From: a virus
IMG/VR virus record: IMGVR_UViG_3300009093_000022
Direction: 5' to 3' (one strand)
Length of the DNA stretch: 45,230 nt
Below the pieces are notes generated by a model that was not told the DNA's origin, ran no database searches, and saw nothing but the letters and a program-made list of their open reading frames with translations. This document shows, one piece after another, positions 1 to 45,230 of this stretch. Both the position numbers and the translations under genes were made by a program. Each line of letters starts with the position of its first letter. Positions within the stretch are counted from its first letter, which is position 1.

Positions 1-123
1 ACGACAGTGTTCGAAGTAGTCGAGATCGTCAAGGCATACCCCTTTTGGGCATTGCCTTGCGACCGCACGAGCTACAACGTGGAATGTGTTCCCGGCGTGC
101 GCAAGTTGTGGATTACTGATTTC
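1..123. repeat. Terminal direct repeat copy A (identical to 45108..45230)
   Basis: Base-for-base identity with the last 123 nt. Contains the 5' end of the tailspike ORF and the stop of the 1859-aa ORF, so it is a circular-closure overlap or terminal redundancy. Confidence 0.95.
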
Positions 124-3100
124 CTTGTCCAAGAGCCAACCCGCGCGCCAGATCTACTGCGCTCTTCGGGTGCTGCTTACCGCTCTTGACATCCGCTGCA
201 TATTGTAGCGTAGTCCCAATCTGTCCGGCACCCGGAATCGCCAATCCAATGGCATTCCCGAGATCCTTAATAGGTGCTTTCGGTTGCTTTCCATGAGCCG
301 CATCCCATGCGTCCTTGAACGGCTTTCCTCCTGCCGAAAGCGCCCGCATCAGTGGCGACAGGCCCGCGTCGTTGAAACCTTTCAGGGCCGACCACGCGTC
401 ACGCAATCCCGGAACCATCCCGGCGAATTCCCCGGTGATAGCCTTCGCCGCCCATTCTCCGAATCCCTCGCCCTTGTGTTGCTTCTCGACGACACCGGCT
501 GCGAGAGCCGGGACGATCGACGCCATCAGGAATCGAGCCAGCACTTCAGGCTTGGAAAAGCCAGAAGTCCGAAGTTTGTCCGCCATGTCCATCGTTTGAC
601 CCAAACTGTTGTTCATGAAGCCGTAGAGAGTGGTCATCATCTTGACCGCCTCGCTCTTGCTTTGAAGGATGCGCGATCGCGCCGACTCGATCTGGCTACC
701 ATGCGCCTCACGGACGATCTGGTTCGCGTATTCGATCGCATCAGCTTCGCTCATCGGCTTGCCCGTGCCGCCACGGTTGGTCGGGATGCCTTCGGTGATT
801 GCGCGGTCATACGCAGCCCACGCCGTGGGGACTGCGGACAGCAGGTCTAGATACGCGACGCCGGCATGACCAAACCGCTCAGCCTTCGAATGGAAACTCT
901 CTGGCTCAAACAGCGATGCCGTGGTTTGACGATAGTCGCGATCCTGCTGCATGGCGCGCGCTCGGATCTCTGGGAACTTCTCGATCGCCCCTTCCATCAT
1001 GCCTGTGTGGTCGGTGGCCATCTGTGCCGCCCGAGCGAGGAAGTATTTGTTGCCGCCGCCCGAGAAATACCCCGACGACTTGAACAGGGCGGAGCCGCCA
1101 TGCTTGATCATCGTCGAGATTCGCAGGGCAATTCCGTTCGCGACCAGCATGTGTCGGGTCGACTCCATGATCTTGCCGAGGCGGCTCATCTGCGCGTCCG
1201 TGTTCGGGCCGTTCGCCAAGTCACCAATCCATTCCTGCATCGCCTTGTACTGCTCGGTTCCATAGGTCAACTGGAACTGGCGCCGGAAGTCCTGACTCGA
1301 CAGGATCTTGTGCGCGTCGAGCAATGCCTCGCGATAGGCAAGATCGTGGATCGTGTCATGCAGACGTCGTTCGATCGAATGGAATCCAAGGTCGAGCCGA
1401 TCGAAATAGTTCGTCCGTGCGTTCAATGAGCCGTTGGTCGTCGTGTCGGCACGGAAATATCCCTTGCCGAACAGGCCTTCGCTCGGGTTGATGGCAGTCG
1501 CGTCGGACTTCCTGACCGCCAGTTTCGAGCGGATCGGATCGTAGTCGATCGGGGCATAGCCCCCCTTCATCTCGATACCGTCCGGCGTGCGGAACGGCCG
1601 CGGCTCGATGTGGTCGGGTGAGACATTCCCCAGGCGCTGGTTCATCGCAACCATGTCAGGCCAGTGGCGCTCGAATGCATCCCACGTTGCCTGCGTCGCC
1701 TTCCAGTCGGCCGGCGTCATGTTCTCGTGCAGGAACGCCCAGACGTCCCGGCCATCCCATTCCATGCCGCGGGTCAGCTTTTCGAAGTTCGATTCGTTGC
1801 CAACGTGGCGAGCGATACCGAGCATGTCGCCGCGCGTCAGGCGCCGATAGACTGGTTCGCCCATCTCCTGCGTCAGATCGGCATCGATCAGTCGGCTGTT
1901 CGGTACCAAGTCACTCAGCGAATTCTGCCAGTCCACACCGAGTTCTCCGGCTACTGACCGGAAATCATCGGCCAGCGTCTTGAGCATGTCGATCTTGCGA
2001 TAGTTGGCATCGAACACCCGATCGAAGATCGCGCGAGTGAACGGACCCAGCACCTCATGCTGGTCGAACTGATTGGCCTTGAACTGCTGAGGTTTCAATT
2101 CTGCAACAGAGGCCCGAAGCCACGACCCCATCCGGTCGAGCGCAACCCGAACGAGTGGGTCAGTACCGACGCGAGGCCGATCGACAATCTCCTGCATGGA
2201 GAACTGTTCGCCGCGGGCTTTCATCTTGTCGACGAGATCGCCGACGATTTCGTCCAGAGCCATTCGCTTGCCGGCGACTGTAACTGTCTTGCGCTCCTTG
2301 GCGATTTGCTCGAGCGAACGGATCGTATCGTTGAATCCTCGAAGCTGCTCGACCGTCATGTCCTTGTAATGCATGCGGACAGTTGGATCCAGCATGCCGG
2401 GATGTTCGACCGGTGCGTATCCGTACGCCTTCTGCGTATCCATCCAGTCCTGAAGCGATACCTGCTGCTTGGTCGGGCCTTCGGGCGGTTTCTGGCGGAA
2501 ATCGAATCGCTCGCGCAGTGCGTCGATTTGCTCGAGCACATCCGGATCCATCTTCGCGCGGATGCTGGCCTTGTCGTAACGGGCCTGCGACGACACGATC
2601 TTCTTGATGTCGGCGATCGCATCTCGCGCAGCCTTCGCCAGCCGGTTAGACAACAACGCCTGGCGCTGGGCTTCGACTGCCTTCTCGGGGCTTTTCGGCG
2701 CCTGTGCAATAGCTTCTCGGTTGGCCTTCGTCTCGGCGACTTCATGCTGGCGCGGGTTGACGTCTCGCACACGTTTCTGCGCAATAGCCGACTGCGCCGC
2801 CTCGTCTGCCGCCTTCGTCAAGTCACGCACCGGAACCGGAGACTTCGCGAGGATCTTCAGCCCGGTCGCCATGAAGCGGGCGCGGGCTTCGTTGTGGACG
2901 GCTTCGTTCGCCGCATCCTCGATCGCCTGAGGGTCGACCAGTTCGCCGTGACGTTCCAGCATGCGCTGATCGGTCAGGCGATCGATCTCGGCGTTGCGGT
3001 CAGCCTTCGTGCGATCCAGGCCGGCGATCAGTTCTTCGCGGCTCGGGATGCCGAACTGCTCCGCGACCGCATCCATGATGACGGATTCTTTCTTCTTCAG

Positions 3101-5692
3101 GTCGTTTGCAGCGATATAGTTCCGGGCCCGCTCGATCGGCGAGTTGTCCATCTCGCGCGTGACTTCCTCCCGAATCAGATCCCGTTGCGCATTCGCCTCG
3201 CGCTGCATTGCGCGAATCGCCTTAGACTTGGCACGGCTCGCCCACTTCATGTCCTTCAGGCTGCGTTCCTGCATGTCGGAGACGGCCTGATCCGTGGCAT
3301 GCTGACCCAGCGCGGCATAGTTCGAAAGCTGCTTCTCGGTCGCGCCTGACTTCGACAGGTCGAGCGGAGCATATCCACGTGCGGCCTCCGTCTCGCGGAT
3401 AGCCTGATCCGAAGCCAGCAGCCGGTCGAACACTCCGCGCACCTCGGGACTCAGTTGAACCCCGAGCGACGCGACGCTGCGGTAGAGGTTGACCAGCCAC
3501 GAACGGAACCGCGCGAACAGCGGTTGAAGCGCCTGGGTCGGGGCCTTCCCTTCCATCAGGTATGCCTCGAATCCACGGGCGAACTTTTCGTGGACGTTGC
3601 GCTGCTGCTCAAGCGTGCGTCCTTGCCAGTCAGCGATATCCTTGCCTCCGGCCCACGACAGGAAGGTCTGGAGGTCGTCCTTGATAGCCGGCGGCGCACC
3701 TTCCCGGCTCGCGAGATCGGTCAGCGTATCGAGGAAGAAGTGCCCGGACTCATGCAGAAAGGTCGACAGGTCGGCGTCCTGCAACAGTGCGACCGTGCGA
3801 GTCTCCGGGTCGAACGCACCGCGGGCGGATTGCTCGAGCGCACCTTCCGGAGCTTCTCCCGCGATGCGCAGCGGGAATTCCTTGTACATCTCGGCCGGCG
3901 TCATCCCGGCCCGCTCGGCCATCGTCCGGTAGAACTCGGTCACTGGGGCCACGCTTGCCTTCACCACGTCAGCCGGATAGCGGCCGGTCGCGGTCATCTG
4001 CTCCGTCAGCGAGTCACCGATCCGCTTGATTTCCTCGTCCTGCGTGGCAGCGTCGGTCTGCATCTTGACCAGTTCATCCGCGCGCGTCGACATTTCCTCC
4101 TTCACGTTCTGGAAGAACTGTTGACCTTCGGCGTACGTCATGCCGCCTTCTTCGGTCTTCAGGTTCGGCAGGATGGCTGCATCCAGAGGGGTTCCAGCGA
4201 TGTGCGTCGCGTAGTCCTCGATCGGAATCTGGACGTCACCGCCAGTTGCTGTCGCTTCCTGAACACGAGCGGCCAAGTCAGGCATGACCGACGTGTCGAT
4301 CGGAGATTGATGCAGGGCATCGGAGAGAGTCTTGCCGTCCACATAGACCGACTGCACCGGACCATCTTCGGCCGCGTCCGCCACGAAGCGCTTGAACGCT
4401 TCCGGGTCGTACTGGCGCAGCTTCGACTCAGCCGCGATCTGGCTGAGCCGCTCGATCGAGGCGCCCCCACGCTCTGCGGTTTCTGCCGCCAGCCCATCCG
4501 AGAATGCACGGCGAGTCGCGTCATGAAGCGGGTTCTGTCCCATCACGCCAGACAGCATGGCGCCAGACAAGCCCGACAGGATCGTGTTGGTCGGATCGAA
4601 GCCTTCTTGTTGCGGCATCACCAGGTTCATCGCCTGGCGACTCACTTCACCCGATACGGCGCCAGACACGAAGCCGGATGCAAGACGAGTGCCGAGGCCG
4701 CCAGCCGCGCCGATCGGCACCACCCCGCCGAGGGTCGTTGTCGCGTAGCTCATCTGCGCAGCACGGATCGCCTGCTGCATGTCGCCGGTCTGGTTGTACA
4801 CGTCCGTACCGGTGTTGACCGCCGACGTCAGCGCCGGGAACAGCATGGCTTTCGCGCCGTGCATTGCCGCCTGCCCGACTGCCGCAAGACCTTCAGTCGC
4901 GGTAGCTGCCTCTCCGCCACCGGCTGTTCCCATGATCTGCACCAGCGTGCCGAGCATGTTGCCGACCGTGTCCGCAGCCTTCACGCCGAACGGCGCATTC
5001 GCTGGTGTCGCCAGCATCTGCCGATTCGCCAGCGGCGGGGCGATCATGTGCCGATACCACCAGTCGGACAGGTGGGTTCCGGCATCCTGACCCGTGACGA
5101 CACTCGACAGGTTCGGGCCAGCAATCGCGCTGGTCGCCTTGTCGATGCCGGACAGACCTGCCCCGATGGCGCGGTTCAGCCCCAGTGCTGCGCTGTTGAA
5201 GCTTGAGCCAAACCCGCGCGCGAGTCCCCCGAGAAAATCGCGCATCATGCCCGTGGTCTGCTGCGACACGATCAAGTCGATGTCGTTCAGACCGCCGAGT
5301 TCGTCTTTCGCGATACGGGCTGAGTCGGGATTGTTGACGGCCCAATTGGCGAGCTTCGGATTGCCGGCCAGAGCAGCGGCTCCCTGCTGCGCCTTGGCCT
5401 GAGCCTCGTAACGCGAGAGGTCAGTCTCGACCGCGCCTTGCGGCAATCCGATCTGACGCCCGACTTGAGCTGCTCGACCGGCCGTGTCAGCCGGCACGTC
5501 CTGCGTACCGATTACCTGAGCCTGTGCGGCGCGGACGTTAGCTGCATCGCTTGCTGCCTTCTGGTCGCGCAGGAATGCCTCGAACGGATCGGCCCCTTGC
5601 TGGTTTGACGTCTGCGGTTCAGGCGCGAGCGGACTCTGGGCCTGAGCACCGCCCTTGTTGTCTTGCAGAAAGGACTCGAAATCATCGGCCAT
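113..5692 (-). CDS. Giant internal virion / DNA-ejection protein (polyvalent-type) with HExxH metallopeptidase-like motif
   Basis: 1859-aa ORF, last gene of the ejection-protein block before the tailspike. Gly/Ala-rich hydrophobic stretch at about residues 240-390. HESGH at residues 647-651 (nt 3740..3754). Confidence 0.6.
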   Translation of the reverse strand: MADDFESFLQDNKGGAQAQSPLAPEPQTSNQQGADPFEAFLRDQKAASDAANVRAAQAQVIGTQDVPADTAGRAAQVGRQIGLPQGAVETDLSRYEAQAKAQQGAAALAGNPKLANWAVNNPDSARIAKDELGGLNDIDLIVSQQTTGMMRDFLGGLARGFGSSFNSAALGLNRAIGAGLSGIDKATSAIAGPNLSSVVTGQDAGTHLSDWWYRHMIAPPLANRQMLATPANAPFGVKAADTVGNMLGTLVQIMGTAGGGEAATATEGLAAVGQAAMHGAKAMLFPALTSAVNTGTDVYNQTGDMQQAIRAAQMSYATTTLGGVVPIGAAGGLGTRLASGFVSGAVSGEVSRQAMNLVMPQQEGFDPTNTILSGLSGAMLSGVMGQNPLHDATRRAFSDGLAAETAERGGASIERLSQIAAESKLRQYDPEAFKRFVADAAEDGPVQSVYVDGKTLSDALHQSPIDTSVMPDLAARVQEATATGGDVQIPIEDYATHIAGTPLDAAILPNLKTEEGGMTYAEGQQFFQNVKEEMSTRADELVKMQTDAATQDEEIKRIGDSLTEQMTATGRYPADVVKASVAPVTEFYRTMAERAGMTPAEMYKEFPLRIAGEAPEGALEQSARGAFDPETRTVALLQDADLSTFLHESGHFFLDTLTDLASREGAPPAIKDDLQTFLSWAGGKDIADWQGRTLEQQRNVHEKFARGFEAYLMEGKAPTQALQPLFARFRSWLVNLYRSVASLGVQLSPEVRGVFDRLLASDQAIRETEAARGYAPLDLSKSGATEKQLSNYAALGQHATDQAVSDMQERSLKDMKWASRAKSKAIRAMQREANAQRDLIREEVTREMDNSPIERARNYIAANDLKKKESVIMDAVAEQFGIPSREELIAGLDRTKADRNAEIDRLTDQRMLERHGELVDPQAIEDAANEAVHNEARARFMATGLKILAKSPVPVRDLTKAADEAAQSAIAQKRVRDVNPRQHEVAETKANREAIAQAPKSPEKAVEAQRQALLSNRLAKAARDAIADIKKIVSSQARYDKASIRAKMDPDVLEQIDALRERFDFRQKPPEGPTKQQVSLQDWMDTQKAYGYAPVEHPGMLDPTVRMHYKDMTVEQLRGFNDTIRSLEQIAKERKTVTVAGKRMALDEIVGDLVDKMKARGEQFSMQEIVDRPRVGTDPLVRVALDRMGSWLRASVAELKPQQFKANQFDQHEVLGPFTRAIFDRVFDANYRKIDMLKTLADDFRSVAGELGVDWQNSLSDLVPNSRLIDADLTQEMGEPVYRRLTRGDMLGIARHVGNESNFEKLTRGMEWDGRDVWAFLHENMTPADWKATQATWDAFERHWPDMVAMNQRLGNVSPDHIEPRPFRTPDGIEMKGGYAPIDYDPIRSKLAVRKSDATAINPSEGLFGKGYFRADTTTNGSLNARTNYFDRLDLGFHSIERRLHDTIHDLAYREALLDAHKILSSQDFRRQFQLTYGTEQYKAMQEWIGDLANGPNTDAQMSRLGKIMESTRHMLVANGIALRISTMIKHGGSALFKSSGYFSGGGNKYFLARAAQMATDHTGMMEGAIEKFPEIRARAMQQDRDYRQTTASLFEPESFHSKAERFGHAGVAYLDLLSAVPTAWAAYDRAITEGIPTNRGGTGKPMSEADAIEYANQIVREAHGSQIESARSRILQSKSEAVKMMTTLYGFMNNSLGQTMDMADKLRTSGFSKPEVLARFLMASIVPALAAGVVEKQHKGEGFGEWAAKAITGEFAGMVPGLRDAWSALKGFNDAGLSPLMRALSAGGKPFKDAWDAAHGKQPKAPIKDLGNAIGLAIPGAGQIGTTLQYAADVKSGKQHPKSAVDLARGLALGQGNQ

Positions 5693-7958
5693 TCTTGCGC
5701 CCCTTCGACAGCGTGTACCGGGTGTACCACTGGTTCAGTTCGTCGTCGGTCGGATCGTGACCCATCACGCGCTTGAACGTCGCGGCCAGTTGCGGCTTCT
5801 GGTCTTCAGGCACGGTCGCCGTGAACTTCGACAGGTCAGGCGACTGGAATGCCATCATGTCCTTGTTCATGCCGAACCAGCCGGCGCCAGCCTGCGAACC
5901 CTGCGAGATCAGGCCGGCTGCCATCTGGCGCGTCGTCTTCGTGTCCGGGTACTTCTTGTTCTGATCGTGATACTGGTCGATCGCTTCCTCGAGCTTGCCG
6001 TAGAACGTCGCGGTCGTCGCCGCTTCGTCGGTCCCGCCCTTTGCCGTTGCACCCAATCCCAGCGGCTTGAGCATGTCCTCGACCTCGCCCTTCGTGCGCG
6101 ACCAGTTCAGATCCTTGGCCGACCGAGCAGAATCAGCCTTGCTGACTGACATCTGTCGGTTCATCAGATCGAGAACTAGGTGGTCCGGCATCTGCCCGTA
6201 TAGCTTCGACAGATCCTCGTTCATGAAGGCGTCACCGTTGTTGACGGCCTCGCCACGCAAGCGGTAATACGTGTTCATGCCGTCCTGCGTCAGGGGTGCA
6301 TTCGTCTTCGACAGACGGTTTTGCACGGCCATCTGCCCTTCCGGAGTCAGTTGCGACCACGCGGTCTTGAGCGTGGGATTGGACATGATCTGGTCAACCG
6401 ACGTAATGCGGTCACTTCCATCAGGCTTGGAACCGACCAATGCGCGCGTAATCGTGTCGGTAGCGGCGGACTGTTGAACCCGGACGCCTTCGAGGATCTG
6501 ATTGCCGTACCCCTGAGTCCGAGCAGCCACCATGTCCGCAAACTGCGGATCGTTCGGGAACATGCGATCGGCGAGTGCCCGAGCTTCGTCGACCTTCTGC
6601 GGCAGGACAGTCGCGAGTTCGTGTGACGTCGGGAGTGCTGACGGCCGACCGTCCGAAGGGGTGATCATGCCCAATCCCTTGCCGACGTATGCACGCGTTT
6701 CCGAGAACGGAATCTTAGCCGCCCAGTCTGAGTCGCTAATCTGACCCGTGCGGGGGTCGCCGTATTTGGCGATCCACTTGTCGACCGTGCCCGGGCCGGC
6801 ATTGTAGGCAGCCAGCGTCAGTGCCGGATCTTGATACCGTGCCGTCATCGCGCCCAAGTAGTCGCGGCCGACACGTGCTAGTTCCTCTGGGCTGTTGTCC
6901 TTCGCAGGAGTCACGCCGAACCCCGGATTTCGGGATGTAAGAGGCATGACCTGCATCTCTCCCTGAGCACCTTTCGGCGACGTCAGGGATTCTCCGTTCG
7001 GCCCGGTTCCACCTTCCAGCGCCTTGACGACACCAGTCAAGGCGGGCGATCCCTGCGAAGCCCCTTGCAAAGTCTGAGGATCGAGCGCCCCGCCCTGATA
7101 GATGATCCCGCGCCCGATGTTGCGCGCCAGCACTTCCTTCGCCCCACGCATCAGGTAGTTCTCGAGCGACGGCAGTTCGGCCGGCGTGATCTGCGACTTG
7201 ATATCGGTGTGCTGGGTCTGTCCGTTGGCCGACCATTCCTCTCCGTTCTCCAGCATCGAATACGCGCCGACTGGATCGTGGAGCGCCATATTCGACAGGC
7301 GGTCCTTCCACATCTGGCTTGTATCGTTCTGGATCTGGGCGCGCGCGTACTCCACCGGCTGACCGATCGCCGCGGCGTGGGCCATGCGTTCAGCGGCGAC
7401 AGACTGGAGCGCCCCGTTGAATATGATCGGATCATTCCAGTGGTCGGAAGCTCGTTGCTGCTCGGACTTCACCATGCCCTCGCTGGCCTGTGTCTGGTAC
7501 ACCTTGTTCTGCTGATCGGCGTACCGCGACATCCCGTCCAGTTCCATCTGCGTGCGCCGCGTCGACACCTGGTCGAACATGCGCTGCGCCATCGGGTCCT
7601 GAAGCTGGGCCCGCTGCTGTTGCTGCAAGTCCTGCAACTGCTGCTGAAACTTCGGCAACTGGTCTACGGCGTCCTTGCCTTGCAACGCGTAGTAGTTCGT
7701 GTAGATCTGCCGAAGCGCGGGACTGAAGCTGTTCGCGTACTGGTTGTTTGCGTCCGTCTCGCGCTGCAAATCCAACTGCCGTACGGCAGCCTGAGTGACT
7801 TGATCGCCGCCTTGCTGGATTCCTTGCGCCAATTTCCCCGTTGCTTCGGCCGTAATCCCACCGAACGCATCCGGCGTCGCACCCGCAATCTGCTGCGGTT
7901 GCAGGGTGACGTTGCTGAAAACGCTTTGCGAGGTCTCGAGTTTCGGCAGGATCGGCAT
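5682..7958 (-). CDS. Internal virion protein with soluble lytic transglycosylase (SLT) domain
   Basis: 758 aa. SLT-like signature GAQGEMQVMP ... AAYNAGPGTVDKW. Position between a small internal virion protein and the giant protein resembles T7-type peptidoglycan-degrading core proteins. Confidence 0.7.
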   Translation of the reverse strand: MPILPKLETSQSVFSNVTLQPQQIAGATPDAFGGITAEATGKLAQGIQQGGDQVTQAAVRQLDLQRETDANNQYANSFSPALRQIYTNYYALQGKDAVDQLPKFQQQLQDLQQQQRAQLQDPMAQRMFDQVSTRRTQMELDGMSRYADQQNKVYQTQASEGMVKSEQQRASDHWNDPIIFNGALQSVAAERMAHAAAIGQPVEYARAQIQNDTSQMWKDRLSNMALHDPVGAYSMLENGEEWSANGQTQHTDIKSQITPAELPSLENYLMRGAKEVLARNIGRGIIYQGGALDPQTLQGASQGSPALTGVVKALEGGTGPNGESLTSPKGAQGEMQVMPLTSRNPGFGVTPAKDNSPEELARVGRDYLGAMTARYQDPALTLAAYNAGPGTVDKWIAKYGDPRTGQISDSDWAAKIPFSETRAYVGKGLGMITPSDGRPSALPTSHELATVLPQKVDEARALADRMFPNDPQFADMVAARTQGYGNQILEGVRVQQSAATDTITRALVGSKPDGSDRITSVDQIMSNPTLKTAWSQLTPEGQMAVQNRLSKTNAPLTQDGMNTYYRLRGEAVNNGDAFMNEDLSKLYGQMPDHLVLDLMNRQMSVSKADSARSAKDLNWSRTKGEVEDMLKPLGLGATAKGGTDEAATTATFYGKLEEAIDQYHDQNKKYPDTKTTRQMAAGLISQGSQAGAGWFGMNKDMMAFQSPDLSKFTATVPEDQKPQLAATFKRVMGHDPTDDELNQWYTRYTLSKGRKNGR

Positions 7959-27934: not shown

Positions 27935-27960
27935 AGCCCGCAAACGCGGGCTTTATTTTT
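27935..27960 (+). terminator. Rho-independent terminator
   Basis: AGCCCGC-AAAC-GCGGGCT followed by TTATTTTTG. Confidence 0.8.
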
Positions 27961-27980: not shown

Positions 27981-28009
27981 TTGACTGCTGCGGTTGAGTC
28001 AACTACACT
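27981..28009 (+). promoter_or_regulatory. Sigma70-type early promoter for the plus-strand operon (PL analogue)
   Basis: TTGACT (27981..27986)-N17-TACACT (28004..28009). The spacer holds the palindrome GTTGAgTCAAC. A 15-mer ACTACACTGAATTCA (28002..28016) matches the PR copy at 14 of 15 positions. Confidence 0.6.
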
Positions 28010-28342: not shown

Positions 28343-28552
28343 ATGTTTATCGAGAAGATTCTGAGTCAGCATCGCAACGATTTCACGGCGACGCTGAAGT
28401 GTGAGCACTGTGGCAGCACGCAGAAGCTTGACAGCGGATATCACGATGACTTCTATCACTCGAAGGTGATCCCGGCGATCGGGTGCCACTCGTGCGGAAA
28501 GCGCCGGGATGGGTCAACTGGCCAATCCGAGTTTCAAAGTGTAGCTGCGTAG
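28343..28552 (+). CDS. Small zinc-ribbon-like protein
   Basis: 69 aa with CEHC...CHSC Cys pairs. TAGGAGG RBS. Confidence 0.6.
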   Translation: MFIEKILSQHRNDFTATLKCEHCGSTQKLDSGYHDDFYHSKVIPAIGCHSCGKRRDGSTGQSEFQSVAA

Positions 28553-28561
28553 GAGGGAATC

Positions 28562-28768
28562 GTGGACTGGTATCAGGAAATCAGCGTAACCAACGGCGTG
28601 ATGTACGCCGGCTCCCGGTGGATCGGTTCGTTTTCCTCGCACGAGGCAGCGCTGGAGATCATGAGCATCCGGCGCGAGCAACGGACGGTGTACAGCGCGC
28701 GTGAGACGCATTGCTGTACGGAGTCCGATCTCGAGCTTGCCGAAGCCATCAATTTTGACGAGAGATAG
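28562..28768 (+). CDS. Hypothetical early protein
   Basis: 68 aa. GTG start with AGGAGGG 5 nt upstream. Confidence 0.55.
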   Translation: MDWYQEISVTNGVMYAGSRWIGSFSSHEAALEIMSIRREQRTVYSARETHCCTESDLELAEAINFDER

Positions 28769-28771
28769 ATC

Positions 28772-28918
28772 ATGAACTTCCATCGCCTACATACCGTACT
28801 CGTGCTTTTGTCCGGTGGCTATCTTGAAGTCGCCTGCGCAGACATGGAGCTGCCGGAAATGCAGCGACATTGGCAGATTCGGCGGACCGTGGACTACGGG
28901 CAAGTTTGCTGGTGCTGA
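28772..28918 (+). CDS. Possible 48-aa ORF
   Basis: Hand-translated as MNFHRLHTVLVLLSGGYLEVACADMELPEMQRHWQIRRTVDYGQVCWC. Weak RBS. Confidence 0.25.
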   Translation: MNFHRLHTVLVLLSGGYLEVACADMELPEMQRHWQIRRTVDYGQVCWC

Positions 28919-28924
28919 CTGTTT

Positions 28925-29041
28925 TGTAGGGAGAGGAATGCCCAGGTGGTGACTGAGCGCATCGTCTGAACTACGGTTAATCAGCGCTGGGAAAATCTGA
29001 CGCCAGCAAGCCAGAGCTTCACCACTGGCCCTCTCCCTACA
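28925..29041 (+). repeat. Long-range inverted repeat enclosing about 93 nt; candidate structured RNA
   Basis: Perfect 12-bp arms TGTAGGGAGAGG (28925..28936) and CCTCTCCCTACA (29030..29041). These are extended by about 11 further pairs (28940..28952 with 29019..29029, two 1-nt bulges). Lies in a gap between small ORFs. Confidence 0.5.
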
Positions 29042-29069
29042 GATCAGTAAGTATTGCGAAGGAGTTGGT

Positions 29070-29195
29070 ATGCGAGCCCACATTTACATGCGGTTCGGCC
29101 TTTGGGTAGCGAGGCTAGAAGATGAAACAGCGCTGCCGTTCCGGACGTTCGAAGGCGCGGCAGCTTGGGCAAAACGGATTCACGAAGGTAACTAA
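29070..29195 (+). CDS. 41-aa small protein
   Basis: Hand-translated as [47 protein letters not shown] lies 6 nt upstream of the ATG. Confidence 0.5.
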
Positions 29196-29206
29196 CCGAG
29201 GAAGAC

Positions 29207-29920
29207 ATGAAGGTCGAGATCAAACATTGGATTACCGGCGCAGTTCTGTTTGCTCATAGCGCAGATGTGAACGGAATCGAGATCGCTCTGAGAGCTGCTA
29301 TTAACGCTGACGCGAACCTGCGCGACGCGAACCTGCGCGACGCGAACCTGTGCGGCGCGAACCTGCGCGACGCGAACCTGCGCGGCGCGAACCTGCGCGA
29401 CGCGAACCTGTGCGGCGCGAACCTGTGCGGCGCGAACCTGCGCGACGCGAACCTGCGCGGCGCGAACCTGCGCGGCGCGAACCTGTGCGGCGCGAACCTG
29501 TGCGGCGCGAACCTGCGCGACGCGAACCTGCGCGGCGCGAACCTGCGCGGCGCGAACCTGTGCGGCGCGAACCTGTGCGGCGCGAACCTGCGCGACGTTA
29601 AAAACCTTGTCTTCCAAATAATTCCCGCGGAAGGCGCATTCATCGGCTGGAAGAAACTCAAAGACGGCGTAATCGCTAAACTGGAAATCCCGGCTGACGC
29701 GAAACGTAACTCCACACCTATAGGCCGGAAAAACCGCGCGGAATTCGTCCGAGTGCTGGAATTGTTCGGCGCGGAAGAAGCGTTAAGCCAGCATGACGGC
29801 GAGACGGTCTATCGAGTTGGTGAGATCGTACGGCCGGATTCGTACAACGACGACATTCGCCTCGAATGTACGCACGGGATTCATTTCTTTATCACGCGCG
29901 CCGAAGCCGAAGCGTATTGA
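29207..29920 (+). CDS. Pentapeptide-repeat protein with a non-repeat C-terminal domain
   Basis: 237 aa. About 20 consecutive A(N/D)LxX pentapeptides ([15 protein letters not shown]), then a roughly 115-aa domain ([10 protein letters not shown]...[18 protein letters not shown]). GAGGAAG RBS. Confidence 0.85.
29312..29596 (+). repeat. 19 tandem 15-bp units GCGAACCTG(C/T)GCG(A/G)C, including two identical 75-bp higher-order copies
   Basis: Only two variable positions per unit. 29432..29506 equals 29507..29581. The array lies inside the pentapeptide-repeat CDS. Confidence 0.95.
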
Positions 29921-29939
29921 CACCACCCAGAGGGACCAC

Positions 29940-30269
29940 ATGAACAAGATCAAATCGACGCCGGGGCCGTGGGGCATCAGCGCAGAGTCGCCAACGATCA
30001 TCAAGCAGTTCGATTTCATGGGTGAGTCGCCCGTGATAATTGGATCCGCTGCGTCACATCCGGGTTCGGCGTACTTCCCGACGAACCAAGAGGCTATCGA
30101 GAACGCCCTGCTTTTCGCAGCTTCGCTCGACATGGCCATGACCCTCGAACTGATCGCCGCCGATGCTGACGCCGGGAACAGCCTCCTCACATCAGACGTC
30201 CGCATGGCCCTCGACGCTGCGCTGATCAAGGCAGGGCGTAAGGAAGCTCCGGTTAGGACGGGAGAGTGA
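29940..30269 (+). CDS. Ead/Ea22-like protein (short paralogue)
   Basis: 109 aa from the internal ATG 29940. The STPGPWGI motif and ENALLFAASLDMAMTLE resemble the Ea22-type PGPW / ANA-LIAAAP pattern. Confidence 0.5.
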   Translation: MNKIKSTPGPWGISAESPTIIKQFDFMGESPVIIGSAASHPGSAYFPTNQEAIENALLFAASLDMAMTLELIAADADAGNSLLTSDVRMALDAALIKAGRKEAPVRTGE

Positions 30270-30270
30270 G

Positions 30271-30336
30271 ATGGAAATCTTCATGATCCTGCTGATCTGG
30301 ATGATCGTGCTTCTCGCAATTCTCATGGATCGATAA
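30271..30336 (+). CDS. Micro-ORF, 21-aa hydrophobic peptide
   Basis: Hand-translated as MEIFMILLIWMIVLLAILMDR. GGAGAG RBS. The start follows the preceding stop by 1 nt. Confidence 0.4.
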   Translation: MEIFMILLIWMIVLLAILMDR

Positions 30337-30337
30337 C

Positions 30338-30493
30338 ATGCGCGCCCCACTCCAAAGCATCCGCAAGGTAGACGACAACGAGTTGCTTCGCGCGTGCGGT
30401 CGCGCTTACGCAGGTCTTGCAGCGATCTGCTGCGTGTTGATCGTGGCTTGTGTGACGGTTCAGTTCACTGACGTTTTGGCGGGGGCGGTATGA
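30338..30493 (+). CDS. 51-aa protein with C-terminal TM segment
   Basis: Hand-translated as MRAPLQSIRKVDDNELLRACGRAYAGLAAICCVLIVACVTVQFTDVLAGAV. ATGA overlap with the next gene. Confidence 0.45.
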   Translation: MRAPLQSIRKVDDNELLRACGRAYAGLAAICCVLIVACVTVQFTDVLAGAV

Positions 30494-30852
30494 GCGAGAC
30501 GAAATTTAATCCTCTGGCAAGAACTGCAAGCGCTCAAGAACTTCATGCCGCCGTCGCGAAAGAAGAATTGCCCGCAATCAGCTTGAAATTGGCGGTCGAG
30601 CATCTGGCGTGTCAGGCTGCATGGGATAAACGACGCGGGGACGCCGTTGCTAGGCTGGGCAGTCAATATCTGCTTGGCTGGATGGACCGATCTGCATTAG
30701 CCGATGAAGTTAGGCACGATCTGCTCGAAGCACTCAAGGTGCTCTACGAAGAAACGGTCGATTACATCCAACGCAACAACTTGGGCGATGTACATCACAA
30801 CCTGAGCATGCGTTTATCTCGGGACGCGCTCAACAAGGCTGCGGGAGTCTGA
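30490..30852 (+). CDS. Hypothetical early protein
   Basis: 120-aa ORF, translationally coupled on both sides. Confidence 0.6.
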   Translation: MSETKFNPLARTASAQELHAAVAKEELPAISLKLAVEHLACQAAWDKRRGDAVARLGSQYLLGWMDRSALADEVRHDLLEALKVLYEETVDYIQRNNLGDVHHNLSMRLSRDALNKAAGV

Positions 30853-30982: not shown

Positions 30983-31170
30983 CAGACGACGGGCCCGACT
31001 ACTGGATGGCGCAACAGGCGCAAGAAGAACTGGAATGGCATGAAGAGCGGAGAAAGAATCGTGAGCGAGAAGAAAACCGGATTGCAAAGGCTGCGGGAGC
31101 CCTTCCCGGAACATCAGATCAGCCTCCTCCCCAAGCCCTACAAGCGGGACTCCCCGAAGGGGAATTGTGA
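30979..31170 (+). CDS. Hypothetical 63-aa acidic protein, 3' part overlapping the annealase gene
   Basis: ORF coupled by ATGA to the upstream peptide. The last ~36 codons overlap the Rad52-like gene, where its third-position GC is low. Confidence 0.35.
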   Translation: MTDDGPDYWMAQQAQEELEWHEERRKNREREENRIAKAAGALPGTSDQPPPQALQAGLPEGEL

Positions 31171-31708
31171 TGTGTGTGGTGGCTGGCATGGTCTTCCTGC
31201 CCTCCATTTGAGCTATGTCGGCCACGCCGCTCTTACTGACCGGTTGCTTGAATGCGACGAAAACTGGTCTTGGGAGCCTCTGGCGCTCGGCCCTGATGGC
31301 CTGCCCTTGCTGGACCGTGACGGCGGCATGTGGATCCGTCTGACGGTCTGCGGCGTGACTCGACTTGGTTATGGCGATGCGCAAGGGAAGACTGGACCTG
31401 ACGCCACGAAAGAACGGATCGGTGACGCACTGCGTAACGCAGCCATGCGTTTCGGTGCCGCGCTAGATCTGTGGCACAAGGGTGATCTTCACGGGCCGGA
31501 AGGCGAGCCGGAAGAACCCGAGGTACAAGCTATCACCGAAAGCGAATTCGAGGATCTCCGCGTTGCTCTTCGCGAAGCTGACGATCTCGAAACGCTGGAA
31601 AGAATCGGGAAAGGTGTGCCGCAGAACGCAAGCCAGCAACAGAAGGCCGAACTTGCAACCGAATACACCAAGCGGAAGCGCGCGCTGAAGGCCCAGGTGC
31701 CAGCATGA
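31040..31708 (+). CDS. Rad52/Sak-type single-strand annealing protein
   Basis: 222 aa. LREPFPEHQISLLPKP, CDVCGGWHG, IGDALRNAAMRFGAALDLW are typical of phage Rad52-family annealases. The true start could be GTG 31061 (GGAG upstream). Confidence 0.65.
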   Translation: MKSGERIVSEKKTGLQRLREPFPEHQISLLPKPYKRDSPKGNCDVCGGWHGLPALHLSYVGHAALTDRLLECDENWSWEPLALGPDGLPLLDRDGGMWIRLTVCGVTRLGYGDAQGKTGPDATKERIGDALRNAAMRFGAALDLWHKGDLHGPEGEPEEPEVQAITESEFEDLRVALREADDLETLERIGKGVPQNASQQQKAELATEYTKRKRALKAQVPA

Positions 31709-31983
31709 ATCTGGACAACATCGACCCGACCGTGATCGTGGCACGTGGCGAATATGCGACCGTGAACGGCGAGTACAAAACCACGATGTCCCTGCTGCAA
31801 ACGCGCGTTCAGGGCGCCTGCGATTCGCTGCGTCATGCGTTGCAGCACGACACCGACCGGATCGAGTTGATCGACCAGATCGCAATCCTTCTGTCCAGCA
31901 TCCGGGAAACTGCGGTTATCGCGAAAGAACTGAAAGAGCAGAAAGACGAGCTTTGGGAATCAGCGTGGGGAGGCAGGAAATGA
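31705..31983 (+). CDS. Hypothetical protein
   Basis: 92-aa ORF with ATGA overlaps at both ends. Confidence 0.55.
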   Translation: MNLDNIDPTVIVARGEYATVNGEYKTTMSLLQTRVQGACDSLRHALQHDTDRIELIDQIAILLSSIRETAVIAKELKEQKDELWESAWGGRK

Positions 31984-32369
31984 GCAAGGTATTCGTTCTC
32001 CGCGCGCCTGAACACGGCCACGCACTCGTCAGCTACATCAAGTCGCTTGCCGGCCCCATGGCGGCTTCCGGAAAGCCTCTGATGGTCACGGTGGACGAAT
32101 ATCAGGCGAAGCGCTCCAGCGAGCAGAACCGGCTTCTCTGGGCTCTCCTGACGGAGATTGCCGAACAAGTGGAGCTGGAAGGCAAGCGGTTCGCCAAGGA
32201 AGCTTGGTACGCCCACTACCTCGATCTCTATGCCCCCAAGCAGGAAGGACCGCGCGGCCTTGTGCCGGTGGGATCGAGCCAGATGACGAAAGAGCAGTTC
32301 GCCAATTTTGTGACGCGCATCGAGTGCCACGCAGTGCAGGAACTTGGCGTCGAATTCGCAGCGATTTGA
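31980..32369 (+). CDS. ninB: NinB/Orf-family recombination mediator
   Basis: 129 aa from ATG 31980. KRSSEQNRLLWALLTEIA is a NinB-type SxxQNxxxW motif. Confidence 0.7.
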   Translation: MSKVFVLRAPEHGHALVSYIKSLAGPMAASGKPLMVTVDEYQAKRSSEQNRLLWALLTEIAEQVELEGKRFAKEAWYAHYLDLYAPKQEGPRGLVPVGSSQMTKEQFANFVTRIECHAVQELGVEFAAI

Positions 32370-32447: not shown

Positions 32448-33500
32448 GTGCCTGCGTACTACAACGAGCACGACCCATACGCCGCGCAGTGGCTGCGCAA
32501 CCTGATCGCCGCCGGACACATCGCTCCTGGCGACGTCGATGAACGGAGCATTGAGGATGTCCGACCTGATGACCTGCGAGCCTACGACCAGTGCCATTTC
32601 TTCGCCGGAATCGGCGTCTGGTCGTACGCGCTTCGACGCGCCGGCTGGCCCGATGATCGACCTGTTTGGACCGGTTCCTGTCCTTGCCAACCTTTCTCCG
32701 CGGCAGGCAAAGGAGCTGGGTTTGATGACGAGCGGCACCTGTGGCCTGTGTGGTACTGGCTCATCGGCGAGTGCCGCCCTCCAGTCATCTTTGGAGAGCA
32801 GGTTGCGAGTTCGGCTGTCGACCCTTGGATCGATCTTGTACACGCTGACATGGAAGCGCTGGACAACGCCTTCGGGTGTGTCCCGTTCCCGTCTGCGGGC
32901 GTCGATGCCTCGCACATCCGTGACCGGGCGTACTGGCTGGCCTACGCCAGTCGTGAACGATTCGAGCAATACCCGCAACGCAACTGCGAACCGATTCCCA
33001 AATGCGAAACCGGCGCACTCGGGGATGACATTGCTGGACGCGGCGACACTCGCAGGCTGGGGCACGCCGAACGCATCGGCGCCGGGCGGAACGCCGGAAC
33101 AGGCGCTGGCTCGCAAAGCAGGATTGCAGTGCGGGCAGTCAGTGACGACGCTCGATCACCAGGTGCAATTGGCTGGCTGGCCGACACCTCGAGCGGCGGA
33201 CGGCGAGAAGAATGTTCGGACGATGGACGGGGCATGGCGAGAGATCGAGAGGAAGGGTTCGCCGCAAGACCTCTCGATGGCAGCGGCAATTGTGGGGCTA
33301 GCCCGACTAACGGCTTCTGGCGAGCTGCTGATTGGCTCCTCTGCCGGGATGGAAAATGGCGGCCAGTTGAACCCGGCACATTCCCGCTGGTTGATGGGGC
33401 TCCCGCGCGAGTGGGACGACTGCGCGCCTACGGCAACGCGATCAACGCAGAAGCGGCAACGCAATTCATCCTCGCCGCGCAAGACATCCTGACCATCTGA
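32448..33500 (+). CDS. DNA (cytosine-5)-methyltransferase, with an anomalous middle region
   Basis: GTG 32448 (GAGG upstream). Motifs [36 protein letters not shown] and [15 protein letters not shown]. The middle ~130 codons are R/G/D/A-rich and look off-frame. Confidence 0.75.
32539..33492 (+). other. +1-frame ORF inside the methyltransferase gene carrying LAGW(P/G)TP modules and a motif-IX-like [16 protein letters not shown]
   Basis: 317 codons open. From about 32930 onward it has three ~40-aa modules, ordinary amino-acid composition and higher third-position GC than the annotated frame. A possible internal ATG lies at 32905. Confidence 0.35.
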
Positions 33501-35340: not shown

Positions 35341-35573
35341 AGATCACCGATGACATGCTGACTGGGTGGTTTCCGAATCATGTGAAGCCGACTCGCATCG
35401 GTTTATACGAAACGCATCGGCCATGCATGACTTCGGGACGACAAGATTTCATGGTTTGGACGGGATTTTTCTGGACCTATCAGGATGGCAGCTATACCGA
35501 CTTTGGCAAGCCATACGGAAGCGAAAGCGAGAGCAAATGGCGCGGCCTCAACAAGGAGCCACAACGTGACTGA
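35337..35573 (+). CDS. Hypothetical protein
   Basis: 78-aa aromatic-rich ORF. ATGA overlap. Confidence 0.55.
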   Translation: MKITDDMLTGWFPNHVKPTRIGLYETHRPCMTSGRQDFMVWTGFFWTYQDGSYTDFGKPYGSESESKWRGLNKEPQRD

Positions 35574-35922
35574 GAGAGAACTGATGCCGTGCCCGTTCTG
35601 CGGCAATCAGCCGTACATTGCCGAAGAAATGGATCCTGAAGACTGGTGGTATGTCGCCTGTCAAACGCCTGGCTGCATTTTGCCGATAGCGGCAGGTTAT
35701 ACGTCCATCGAATCAGCAATCGCGAAGTGGAACCGCCGCACCACTCCCGACAGGGAGGCGATCATCGAGGAATGCGCGAAGGTGTGCGAAGAATTGTCGG
35801 CTGGATTCAGTGAACCCGGTAAACACAGAACGCGCATGGTAGCCGCTGCGATGCAAGGTGCTCTGACCTGCGCTTATGCGATCCGACAAACCAAGACCGT
35901 CCCCAATGGAGAGAAGGGATGA
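35566..35922 (+). CDS. lar: Lar-family restriction alleviation protein with C-terminal extension
   Basis: GTG 35566 (AAGGAG 7 nt upstream). LMPCPFCG...WYVACQTPGC...ESAIAKWNRR matches the Lar-family zinc-ribbon pattern. A further ~60 aa follow. Confidence 0.6.
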   Translation: MTERELMPCPFCGNQPYIAEEMDPEDWWYVACQTPGCILPIAAGYTSIESAIAKWNRRTTPDREAIIEECAKVCEELSAGFSEPGKHRTRMVAAAMQGALTCAYAIRQTKTVPNGEKG

Positions 35923-42745: not shown

Positions 42746-45175
42746 TTATTCAAGCGACGCCCGCCAGTTGAAACTGATGTTCACCCCCGGATTGACGTCG
42801 CAACTCACGGTGAAGGTCGTCGCAGTAACTGCGCTAATCCATGTGCTCTTCGCAGATCCAACCCCGGTCGTCATGCAAAACTGGATCTGGTTGATGCTCG
42901 GCGTAATCAACAGGCCGTGATTGATCGTGACCGACGTAGATCCATTCGGGATGGTTCCGTTACCCAGGCTTACGTTTTGCGGATATTTGATGGCGCCACT
43001 GCCGGCGAAGATGACGGTGCCAGATGTGCCATCCGTTACGATTCGATCGGCGATATAAAGCGTATTGCCAGCGGCAATATTGAAGAGCGCGAACGATGCT
43101 GCGAGCAGATCCCAATTTTTTACGCGCGCATGCGAAACGTTAATCGTGTTGCCCGTAGCGGCGCCGTCGATCAAGAGAAGACCGTGAGCCAGTTGCTCAC
43201 CATTCAGGCCGATGAAATCGATGCGGCAATTGTTCCCTCGGATACGCGCGTTGTACCCGTTGGAAGTTGCCGGAGACGGCCCGTATGAAATGATATTCGT
43301 GAACTGCGCTGTCACGCCGCTCGTAACAGTACTATCGACCACGAGCCAGTTCTGGCACTGATCGAAGTCCAGGTTGATGCCCTGCAACTTGTTGACTGTA
43401 CCTGTCGAGTTCTGCGCAATGAAGAACCCGTTAAGGTTGAAGATGCTGAAAATGTTCGAGAAGAACGGGTTGTCGCAACGGTTGAGCGCGAAGCATGTCG
43501 AATTGGCGGTTTGCCATCCCGTGACGTTCGGATCGTTGTACCAGAACGGCCAGTTGTGCCATTGGTCGACATGGAGAACATCCTCCATCACGTCGACACG
43601 CAAACCGATGTTGAGGAACTGCCCGCGGACGTTGTAGAACATCCCACGCACGCCGCCGCCGTTGAGTATCTCGATCCCGTTATACGGGTTCAGCAGCATC
43701 ACATCTTCCATCAACGCTTCGGCGTTGTTGAAGATGAAATCGAAGTCGAATACCGTTGGTGTCCAACCGACCCCAATCGCGTTGGTATGCTTGCGCTGAG
43801 TTCCAATCTTGGAAAAACGTACCGTAGTGATGAAGCCGCCATCGCCACGGACAGCGTTGAAGCCAATGCTAGGATGATCGAGAAGAAACCAACTACCCGC
43901 CCCCTGATTGTTATACGGCCCGACAGAAGTATAAGGAACGGTGCCCTCACCCACGATCGTAAGACCAGACGTGATCGTGATGGTCGACGTGAGACGATAA
44001 TTCGTCGACACGGCTGGAACAAAAAGCGCCATCACACCACTACCAGTCGCCCACGTGACAGCGGCTTGAACAGCCGCCGTGTCGTCGGTTGCTCCATCTC
44101 CTTTTGCACCGAACTGCTTAATCGAAACCATCCCAGTCGCTTCAAGCAACCACCGCCCGGCTCCTCCCGCAGCAGCCAGGACGGTACCACCGTTGACCGT
44201 GGCAGATGACGTCGAACTGTAGTAGTACGCGCCACCTCCACCATCACCGGCTGCGTAGTAGCCAGTCGCGAAGCAACGCGTATAGACGGCAACATTCAAT
44301 CCACTGATGGCCGCGACGTTGTCGACGACGCGGTTTAGGATGTTGCCCCATGTCAATTGAGCATCGCCCACGGATTGACTGGGCGGGATACTTACCGACA
44401 GCGTAGTGCCGCCAACGATATAGACCTTATTCACTCCCACAGGGATTGGAGACGTGAAAGTGATCTGCGTACCATTCAGCGAATATTGGTCGGTACCTTG
44501 GTAGTTCGTATCAAAATGAACACTAACGTTGGCCGGCGTACCGTATGCCTGAGACAACGTCAGCGTCGTCGTGACGCCCGGCGTGAAATTTGTGCCTGCT
44601 ACGAATGGCCCTTCGCTAATGAGGTTGCCAGCCCCCACGCTGGCGGTGATCGGATAAGTGGTCGCATTGCCGCTGACGTCGAATCCGACAAGCTGACTGG
44701 CGCGTGCCGCAGCATTCGGCAGAACGAGGTTCTTCGGCGTGGCCGAGATCGGAACAGTCAGAGCGAGGCCAAGCTGTTGAGCCAGTTGCTGGGTCTGCAT
44801 CGTCAAGTAGTCGAGTGCGTTCTCGACCACGTTAGGATAGAACCCGGACTGGTTCACCAGATCGGAAAGCTGCTGATACGTGACGATGCGCTGGATCGTC
44901 AGACTCGTGCCGGTTGCGATCGGGCTGCCGACTAGGGGATAGGTGATTGCGCCACCGACAGCAGACCCGATGCCGGTCACGCTGTACGTGCTCGGATTGA
45001 GCAGAGTGACGGTACCCGTTGTGTCGGTGTAGTAGACGAACAGTTCAGACGCGAGCGGTACGGGGAACGTGAAAGAGAAGCTCGTGGTGAGCCCATTCCC
45101 CTGCACAACGACAGTGTTCGAAGTAGTCGAGATCGTCAAGGCATACCCCTTTTGGGCATTGCCTTGCGACCGCAC
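42746..45175 (-). CDS. Tailspike / tail fibre with pectate-lyase-type beta-helix (polysaccharide depolymerase candidate)
   Basis: 809 aa. Conserved fibre N-terminal domain, then SIKQFGAKGDGATDDTAAVQAAV, typical of pectate-lyase-3-type tailspikes. The real start may be TTG 45139 (AAGGGG upstream) rather than GTG 45175. Confidence 0.8.
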   Translation of the reverse strand: MRSQGNAQKGYALTISTTSNTVVVQGNGLTTSFSFTFPVPLASELFVYYTDTTGTVTLLNPSTYSVTGIGSAVGGAITYPLVGSPIATGTSLTIQRIVTYQQLSDLVNQSGFYPNVVENALDYLTMQTQQLAQQLGLALTVPISATPKNLVLPNAAARASQLVGFDVSGNATTYPITASVGAGNLISEGPFVAGTNFTPGVTTTLTLSQAYGTPANVSVHFDTNYQGTDQYSLNGTQITFTSPIPVGVNKVYIVGGTTLSVSIPPSQSVGDAQLTWGNILNRVVDNVAAISGLNVAVYTRCFATGYYAAGDGGGGAYYYSSTSSATVNGGTVLAAAGGAGRWLLEATGMVSIKQFGAKGDGATDDTAAVQAAVTWATGSGVMALFVPAVSTNYRLTSTITITSGLTIVGEGTVPYTSVGPYNNQGAGSWFLLDHPSIGFNAVRGDGGFITTVRFSKIGTQRKHTNAIGVGWTPTVFDFDFIFNNAEALMEDVMLLNPYNGIEILNGGGVRGMFYNVRGQFLNIGLRVDVMEDVLHVDQWHNWPFWYNDPNVTGWQTANSTCFALNRCDNPFFSNIFSIFNLNGFFIAQNSTGTVNKLQGINLDFDQCQNWLVVDSTVTSGVTAQFTNIISYGPSPATSNGYNARIRGNNCRIDFIGLNGEQLAHGLLLIDGAATGNTINVSHARVKNWDLLAASFALFNIAAGNTLYIADRIVTDGTSGTVIFAGSGAIKYPQNVSLGNGTIPNGSTSVTINHGLLITPSINQIQFCMTTGVGSAKSTWISAVTATTFTVSCDVNPGVNISFNWRASLE

Positions 45176-45230
45176 GAGCTACAACGTGGAATGTGTTCCC
45201 GGCGTGCGCAAGTTGTGGATTACTGATTTC
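45108..45230. repeat. Terminal direct repeat copy B (identical to 1..123)
   Basis: Exact 123-nt identity with the window start. Confidence 0.95.

Follow-up and report, generated by a model that had tools for sequence, protein, structure and literature searches.

Why should a phage gene hold a tandem array of almost identical 15-bp units, and what does the protein built from them do? The question is raised by a 237-aa pentapeptide-repeat protein (PRP) that is encoded in a viral DNA of 45,230 bp (IMG/VR record IMGVR_UViG_3300009093_000022; this whole stretch is called the window) and that carries a second conserved domain, DUF5758, behind its repeats (Table 1). A first-pass annotation of the locus had proposed a DNA mimic that modulates host topoisomerase or DNA-targeting defences. 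On balance, we favour a different reading, in which the protein is a host-interaction factor of the early phase, encoded by a single gene, with a conserved DUF5758 head and a fast-evolving PRP rod. The number of repeat units changes in frame between otherwise identical phages, and the variation between units is confined to residues that face outwards on the predicted rod.

The 15-bp array and its length alleles

The array consists of exactly 19 consecutive head-to-tail units, all in frame and of three types: GCGAACCTGCGCGAC (seven copies, translated as ANLRD), GCGAACCTGTGCGGC (seven copies, ANLCG) and GCGAACCTGCGCGGC (five copies, ANLRG). Only position 10 (C/T) and position 14 (A/G) of the unit vary. 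Tandem Repeats Finder reports a period of 15 with 18.9 copies (93% matches, score 477) and a period of 75 with 3.8 copies (98% matches, score 546), and the next-best array anywhere in the window scores 47. The degenerate unit pattern GCGAACCTGYGCGRC has 19 matches, every one within the array, whereas shuffled sequence has 0.07 matches on average and never more than 1. The 19 near-perfect units, the two variable positions and the exact 75-bp duplication described in the first-pass annotation are all confirmed from the sequence, as is its statement that all six reading frames are open across the array. There is no stop codon in any of the six frames, which explains the spurious antisense and alternative-frame open reading frames (ORFs) that cover the repeats.

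The same annotation held the array to be recent and unstable in length. This view is supported by near-identical contigs that differ only by in-frame indels of 75 or 45 bp within the array. Contig L001 is identical to the window over 733 bp and 99.89% identical over 3535 bp, and it carries 14 units, which is the window array minus exactly one 75-bp block. Two contigs of a sister phage, with 22 units (L002) and 19 units (L006), align over 6.7 kb with 0 mismatches and a single 45-bp gap, which lies inside the array. Another sister-phage contig (L098) has 17 units. In the most repetitive part of the array, at its 3´ end, the alleles of 22, 19 and 17 units form a nested series. Proteins of isolates show the same behaviour: in the pairs P0027 (245 aa) and P0034 (210 aa), and P0015 (207 aa) and P0029 (167 aa), the flanks are identical except for five residues that adjoin the array. 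Repeat number, which had been suggested as something that could vary between phage copies, thus differs among relatives with identical flanking protein sequence. On/off phase variation was rejected, as all the indels are multiples of 15 bp and keep the frame.

When viral and metagenome collections were scanned with a pattern for the 3´ flank, only four loci came back, all with 22 units, of which one is a new contig and three are repeat sightings. An exact look-up of the 237-aa protein of the window returned no record, and the 19-unit allele of the window has no independent sighting. The window looks like an assembled contig, and its count of 19 units rests on the assembly.

Predicted beta-helix and the DUF5758 domain

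The N-terminus of the protein aligns with its closest homologues from residue 1, which indicates that the start codon is correct. Spacing in the operon is tight on both sides of the gene: a 41-aa ORF ends upstream at 29195 and the next ORF begins at 29940. That this is a genuine pentapeptide-repeat gene, as first annotated, is borne out by Pfam: the Pentapeptide family PF00805 reaches 154.1 bits against a cut-off of 20.2 (E-value 6e-46). The extra C-terminal domain noted at the same time is also present, and it was identified as DUF5758 (PF19062; 82.5 bits against a cut-off of 26.9, E-value 2.5e-23), which is aligned over profile positions 5–105 of 105.

An AlphaFold2 (AF2) model of the full-length protein was built with a 57-sequence alignment and has a mean predicted local distance difference test (pLDDT) score of 89. 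In this model, an N-terminal cap composed of a beta-hairpin plus a helix closes the start of the beta-helix, and this cap is conserved among relatives. Residues 36–135 form a regular beta-helix with one strand per five residues, which amounts to about 20 faces or 5 coils. It can be superimposed by Foldseek on solved PRPs with root-mean-square deviation (rmsd) values of 0.3 Å over 91 columns (PDB code: 4yc5) and 0.6 Å over 96 columns (PDB code: 4yfo), while MfpA, QnrB1 and AlbG stand lower in the match list of the array (E-values 2e-5 to 9e-4). The repeat part is confidently predicted to be a right-handed quadrilateral beta-helix with four pentapeptides per coil, which is the fold that the first-pass annotation had anticipated. 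Residues 96–146 give a near-threshold NCBIfam match to the 'Cys-every-fifth RiPP peptide CefA' (RiPP, ribosomally synthesized and post-translationally modified peptide; 27.4 bits against a cut-off of 30). We rejected this identity as a by-product of the seven periodic ANLCG units. Seven exposed cysteines on one beta-helix are unusual for a cytoplasmic protein.

The isolated DUF5758 domain was modelled with a pLDDT of 85 and a predicted template-modelling score (pTM) of 0.79. A fold search of this model against the PDB gave no match (best E-value 0.84), the C-terminal domain had no sequence match among PDB chains, and a lenient Pfam scan of the same region found DUF5758 alone. The invariant residues of the family include K149, K175, Y202, E220, C221, G224, H226 and F227. 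The ECTHGIHFF motif, which was also used as a family-wide search pattern, is on sequence grounds a candidate active or ligand-binding site. In Foldseek searches, the C-terminal domain matches predicted structures of phage and giant-virus proteins (E-values 4e-8 to 1e-3, TM-scores of 0.62–0.80 on the query), in which the domain follows PRP, MORN, HEAT or RING regions or stands alone. Acidovorax phage ACP17 encodes at least four paralogues with a DUF5758-like fold (BFVD entries A0A218M3G5, A0A218M3D6, A0A218M3F4 and A0A218M3B0), which suggests that the family has expanded inside one phage genome, as it has in giant viruses. No paper on DUF5758 or PF19062 was found in the library searched, and searches linking pentapeptide repeats with anti-defence, mycobacteriophages or early genes found no functional study.

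Array evolution across the family and its interpretation

The combination of a PRP array with DUF5758 is widespread. Among 8000 scored candidates, 7785 reach an E-value of 1e-10 or lower. DUF5758 is matched by 3199 representatives (clustered at 50% identity) and is C-terminal in all but one of the 150 listed, and PRP arrays of 3–30 units precede it in 122 of the 148 top representatives. Some DUF5758 proteins have 0–2 units only or another N-terminal region. The association spans Proteobacteria, Firmicutes, Actinobacteria, Bacteroidota, candidate-phylum-radiation bacteria and giant viruses. Array evolution was followed in a sample of 80 PRP + DUF5758 loci from many phyla, with GC contents from 33% to 70%. 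No neighbouring gene is conserved over these 80 loci (the best is SSB, the single-stranded DNA-binding protein, in 9 of 80), which suggests that the protein acts as a single-gene module. The neighbours that do occur are early recombination or replication genes, including SSB, ERF, YqaJ, RusA, AAA_24, helicase and antirepressor genes.

Within an array, the fraction of units that use the same codon given the same residue is 1.0 in most of the 80 loci. The consensus unit itself varies by lineage, with Ala encoded by GCG, GCC, GCA or GCT, Leu by CTG, CTC, CTT or TTG, and Gly by GGC, GGT, GGG or GGA. Codons that are uniform within arrays but different between lineages indicate concerted evolution, in which each lineage regenerates its array from few units. 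The first-pass annotation had regarded such DNA-level identity as exceptional for a PRP gene, and this part did not hold: homogenized arrays are the rule in the PRP + DUF5758 family, and an unrelated PRP gene of P22-like phages behaves in the same way.

The differences that remain between units are not evenly placed. Sequence variation is limited to the outward-facing positions i-1, i+1 and i+2, and the inward-facing A and L are fixed. Nonsynonymous diversity between units (piN) exceeds synonymous diversity (piS) in 65 of the 80 arrays. At codons 4 and 5 (i+1 and i+2), piN is about 0.32 and piS about 0.15, and at codon 2 (i-1) the values are 0.20 and 0.09; at codons 1 and 3, which encode the A and L that face inwards, piS is the larger of the two. 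Alleles at first and second codon positions outnumber those at third positions by 182:50 at codon 4 and by 177:49 at codon 5, compared with an equal-rate expectation of 2:1 (chi-square about 14 and p about 2e-4 for each codon, with lineages treated as independent). By a spacing measure, relatives have between 3 and 36 units, and one locus reaches 59. Unit number is uniform modulo 4 with no excess of multiples of four, which indicates that whole coils are not required. The locus with 59 units (L080:5403..6770) is a PRP + DUF5758 gene of Adlercreutzia shanghongiae R25 and represents extreme expansion of the array; its units are of three types (41, 17 and 1 copies), and the array has a higher-order repeat of about 12 units and a net charge of -24, with a length that is doubtful if the assembly is from short reads. 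A diversity-generating retroelement target was rejected for the window array, since its variable sites are C/T and A/G and not adenine-specific and the genome has no second copy of the unit. No reverse transcriptase was found among the annotated window genes, though not every ORF was scanned.

As a control, the orthologue was compared in six cluster E mycobacteriophages (Kostyavirus) from three continents, where its gene comes third after the immunity repressor and belongs to the early rightward operon. It has a constant length of 281 aa in all six phages, and its array is degenerate at the DNA level (unit identity about 0.58, mixed codons). Degenerate DNA with fixed length and homogeneous DNA with variable length are what a slippage or recombination mechanism predicts. 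The cluster E array still changes more quickly than the remainder of its protein: within the array, 20 codons have amino-acid-changing differences and 2 have synonymous differences only, and the corresponding numbers for DUF5758 plus linker are 7 and 3. The changes in the array fall at i-1, i+1 or i+2 in 18 of 20 cases (binomial p about 0.04 versus a neutral expectation of 73% nonsynonymous). These frozen orthologues provide a tractable contrast in culturable phages.

The array is kept near-identical in DNA as single 15-bp units and blocks of several units are gained and lost over and over, probably through replication slippage or unequal recombination, and the recombination genes nearby could promote this turnover. 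Each unit adds one face to the square helix, which lengthens it by roughly 1.2 Å and turns the C-terminal domain by 90 degrees. In the reading that we favour, DUF5758 may serve as the constant working head, acting as an anchor, as a ligand or nucleic-acid binder, or as an enzyme through the invariant E-C...H, and the PRP rod may be a stalk or a surface for protein binding that evolves fast and can be adjusted in length. Its most likely role would be early host takeover or counter-defence through protein–protein contacts and not through DNA mimicry. A bolder version, which we put forward tentatively and regard as rather doubtful, is that the array is a rapidly reprogrammable recognition surface on which slippage and block duplication shuffle a few kinds of unit that differ only in their exposed residues (RD, CG and RG). 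Together with DUF5758, it would represent an unrecognised class of viral adaptors or effectors with which phages and, in another form, giant viruses track variable host or defence targets.

Several points weigh against the favoured reading. Its functional part is inferred. The excess of piN over piS could partly reflect selection on synonymous codons or the charge balance between R and D and not an arms race, and a ratio close to 1 or higher would also be compatible with a surface under no constraint. The cluster E protein works with an array of fixed length, and length variation may therefore be tolerated and not used. Six contigs from five samples carry the 22-unit allele without any difference, which shows that the array is not hypermutable on short time scales. 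Moreover, the closest length comparisons are short-read metagenome assemblies (k141), in which repeat collapse is possible: at k ≤ 99, the array has repeated k-mers and all k-mers of the 14-unit allele are contained in the 19-unit allele. A rival reading takes the array to be real but its 19-unit count, the 75-bp duplication and the polymorphisms between contigs to be produced or distorted by assembly; it is also suggested by the 123-bp direct overlap at the window ends, which is typical of an assembled circular contig. We consider it improbable. At k=127 and k=141, no k-mer is repeated in the region, so that the array is resolvable, and at k=141 each allele has private k-mers (18 for the 14-unit and 93 for the 19-unit allele). 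The identical recovery of the 22-unit allele speaks against distortion as well, differences in unit number between relatives are seen in isolate genomes on megabase contigs too, and two completely sequenced Salmonella phage isolates show a 15-bp repeat indel in an analogous gene.

The main rival, possible though in our judgement not probable, takes the rod to be a passive expandable spacer without a function of its own, whose length and surface drift neutrally by frequent slippage, with all the biology residing in DUF5758. It would account for a unit number that is unconstrained between 3 and 59 and uniform modulo 4, for the DUF5758 proteins with 0–2 units or another N-terminal region, for a nonsynonymous/synonymous ratio near or slightly above 1, as expected of an unconstrained surface, and for the frozen array with which the cluster E protein functions. 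However, the array is kept in 122 of the 148 representatives, across many phyla and giant viruses, a breadth which argues that the rod is selected, and its units differ almost only at outward codons, with the excess over third positions given above. A role at the DNA level, in which the repeats would work as iterons, as sites for protein binding or as a hot spot of recombination, with coding secondary, is hardly credible. The regularity of the 15-bp units, the six open frames and the replication and recombination genes nearby could be read in this way, but the array is always in frame with the conserved cap and DUF5758 in thousands of relatives, the DNA unit differs by lineage while the peptide pattern A-(N/D)-L-x-x is kept, and the rest of the genome contains no copy of the unit.

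The DNA-mimic role that was first proposed, including action on gyrase, is unsupported by these data, and we regard it as quite unlikely. It would have the beta-helix imitate B-DNA and bind gyrase or another topoisomerase, or a restriction enzyme or RecBCD, early in infection. The PRP fold is shared with MfpA, QnrB1 and AlbG, the early operon also carries anti-restriction functions such as the Lar-like protein, the analogous orf232 of P22-like phages adjoins ral, and most arrays of the family are mildly acidic (57 of 80 are negative). In contrast, the window array is basic, with a net charge of +5 and an isoelectric point (pI) of 9.1, as is the whole protein (net charge +2, pI 8.1), all calculated from sequence-based charge only, and the charge of family arrays ranges from +7 to -24, so that no acidic surface is conserved. 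The NCBIfam scores are far below the cut-offs for Qnr (35.7 bits against 240), MfpA (40 against 360) and QnrB (25.6 against 460). The modelled array is uninterrupted, without Qnr-type loops, and the helix is followed by a globular region of 107 aa that includes DUF5758, where MfpA and Qnr have a C-terminal dimerising helix. A beta-helix of this kind rises 4.8 Å per coil, and the MfpA dimer is about 100 Å long; about 5 coils would thus span about 24 Å, or roughly 7 bp. The range of 3 to 59 units, uniform modulo 4, also argues against a mimic, and the conserved part of the family is DUF5758 and not the rod. Since DUF5758 is also found in viruses of eukaryotes, a bacterium-specific target such as gyrase is unlikely to define the family. 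An acidic anti-restriction mimic of the Ocr/ArdA type was rejected because of the net charges of +2 (protein) and +5 (array) and because there is no relation to these proteins in sequence or fold.

The PRP + DUF5758 architecture is already catalogued but uncharacterised, and it is common in phages and prophages of many phyla. We found no description of the family-wide homogenization with variation limited to exposed residues, nor of the link between DUF5758 and giant-virus repeat proteins. With its near-identical relatives that differ only in unit number, the locus shows the turnover of repeats in a phage gene in a clean natural setting. Proteins that combine PRP and DUF5758 occur very commonly and occupy immediate-early positions, and there is no solved structure that resembles the domain. 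Should the rod be a surface for variable binding and DUF5758 an effector, these proteins would constitute a new family that acts in host takeover or counter-defence. Even with a rod that is no more than a tolerated spacer, the locus would be useful as a strain marker and as a warning on the assembly and annotation of repeats.

Genomic setting and comparison with known systems

Positions 1..123 of the window are repeated exactly at 45108..45230, and this 123-bp terminal overlap indicates a complete genome of 45,107 bp that was circularly assembled or has a terminal repeat. The genome is that of a complete temperate epsilon15-like podovirus with Burkholderia-type relatives. Its portal protein is epsilon15-like, and the terminase, major head, tail, tailspike and integrase genes lie on the minus strand. 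The PRP gene belongs to a plus-strand block at 28.0–37.2 kb that constitutes an early or DNA-metabolism operon. With the Lar-like and methyltransferase genes of this block, the phage already carries recognisable anti-restriction functions. The two large minus-strand proteins of 1859 and 758 aa are probably virion or ejection proteins of the podovirus. No tRNA gene was found in the window, a nucleotide search of positions 28500–30500 against GenBank phages found nothing, and neither the full protein nor its C-terminal domain matches a defence model of PADLOC-DB. The nearest relatives of the protein are prophage proteins of Burkholderia cepacia-complex isolates and proteins on soil metagenome contigs.

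Table 1. Coordinates of the PRP gene, its parts and other features of the window.
Feature	Position	Strand	Basis or remark
1859-aa protein (phrog_9880, unknown function)	113..5692	-	window annotation
758-aa protein, endolysin/transglycosylase matches	5682..7958	-	window annotation
Terminator-like hairpin	27935..27952	+	directly precedes the promoter match; consensus match only
Sigma-70-like promoter match	27981..28009	+	heads the early plus-strand block; consensus match only
Shine-Dalgarno-like purine-rich GAGGAAG	29198..29204	+	just 5´ of the ATG; sequence reading
PRP/DUF5758 gene, 237 codons plus stop	29207..29920	+	ORF list; Pfam PF00805 + PF19062
N-terminal cap, aa 1-35	29207..29311	+	AF2 strands 2-7 and 13-18, helix 24-33
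Tandem array, 19 x 15 bp	29312..29596	+	encodes A-N-L-(R/C)-(D/G) pentapeptides, about 5 predicted beta-helix coils
75-bp (5-unit) block, first copy	29432..29506	+	string identity with 29507..29581
75-bp block, second copy (polymorphic segment)	29507..29581	+	absent from L001/P0001
DUF5758, aa 139-234	29621..29908	+	PF19062; mainly-beta globular domain ending in a helix
GWKK motif, aa 147-150	29645..29656	+	K149 invariant; G147, W148 and K150 nearly invariant (57-sequence alignment)
ECTHGIHFF motif, aa 220-228	29864..29890	+	E220, C221, G224, H226 and F227 invariant (57-sequence alignment)
Single-strand annealing protein (phrog_3290)	31040..31708	+	same block, downstream of the PRP gene
NinB	31953..32369	+	same block, downstream of the PRP gene
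DNA methyltransferase (phrog_1008)	32539..33492	+	E-value 6e-46; same block
Lar-like restriction-alleviation protein (phrog_599)	35485..35922	+	E-value 2.5e-12; same block

The closest architecture among named phage proteins is found in Mycobacterium phage 244 gp59, the Kostyavirus 'pentapeptide repeat protein' and the proteins of Rhizobium phage RHph_TM3_3_14B and Ralstonia phage BOESR1. They share the same three-part layout, with both Pfam domains above threshold and 43–49% identity over 92–100% of the protein for most of the listed matches, and the cluster E gene likewise lies early in an operon, beside the immunity region. In contrast to the near-perfect, length-polymorphic array of the window, the cluster E arrays are degenerate in DNA and fixed within a protein of 281 aa. 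MfpA, Qnr and AlbG resemble the window protein in being right-handed quadrilateral beta-helices of A(D/N)LXX repeats. However, the window protein has a basic array, a much shorter helix without the Qnr loops, an additional DUF5758 domain in place of the C-terminal dimerisation helix and a variable unit number, and it is outside this group.

In giant viruses, the same predicted C-terminal fold again stands behind a repeat scaffold, as in a PRP protein of Edafosvirus, MORN-repeat proteins of Hyperionvirus and Harvfovirus and a RING protein of Klosneuvirus, and it also occurs in stand-alone mimivirus and moumouvirus proteins. These examples differ in their eukaryotic hosts and other N-terminal repeat types, their identity is 16–38%, and their structures are all predictions. 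In-frame contingency loci and the repeats of transcription activator-like (TAL) effectors share with the window array near-identical DNA units, few exposed variable residues and changes of unit number by recombination or slippage. This likeness is a conceptual analogy only; TAL effector units have 34 residues compared with 5 in the window array. DotG/IcmE of the Legionella type IVB secretion system carries pentapeptide repeats in variable number beside a conserved C-terminal domain, with a repeat region that is not the same from species to species (PMC6761968). Its sequence similarity to the window array is weak (E-value 7.5e-10), and it differs in being a non-viral structural component of a secretion channel with a TrbI/VirB10-like conserved domain.

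A documented change of unit number in phages, noted once in passing, comes from the P22-like phages L and ST64T, which are >99.9% identical and differ in that one pentapeptide repeat (15 bp) is deleted from orf232 of the early left operon (PMC8022706). In ST64T, orf232 (L007:11086..11784, minus strand) lies between ral and gene 17 and contains 14.7 copies of a 15-bp array with 89% matches. Its C-terminus is unrelated to that of the window protein, matches no Pfam family, is not DUF5758 and lacks ECxxGIHFF. The likeness lies in the rest: both are PRP genes of a phage early operon with a near-perfect 15-bp array and in-frame indels of whole 15-bp units.

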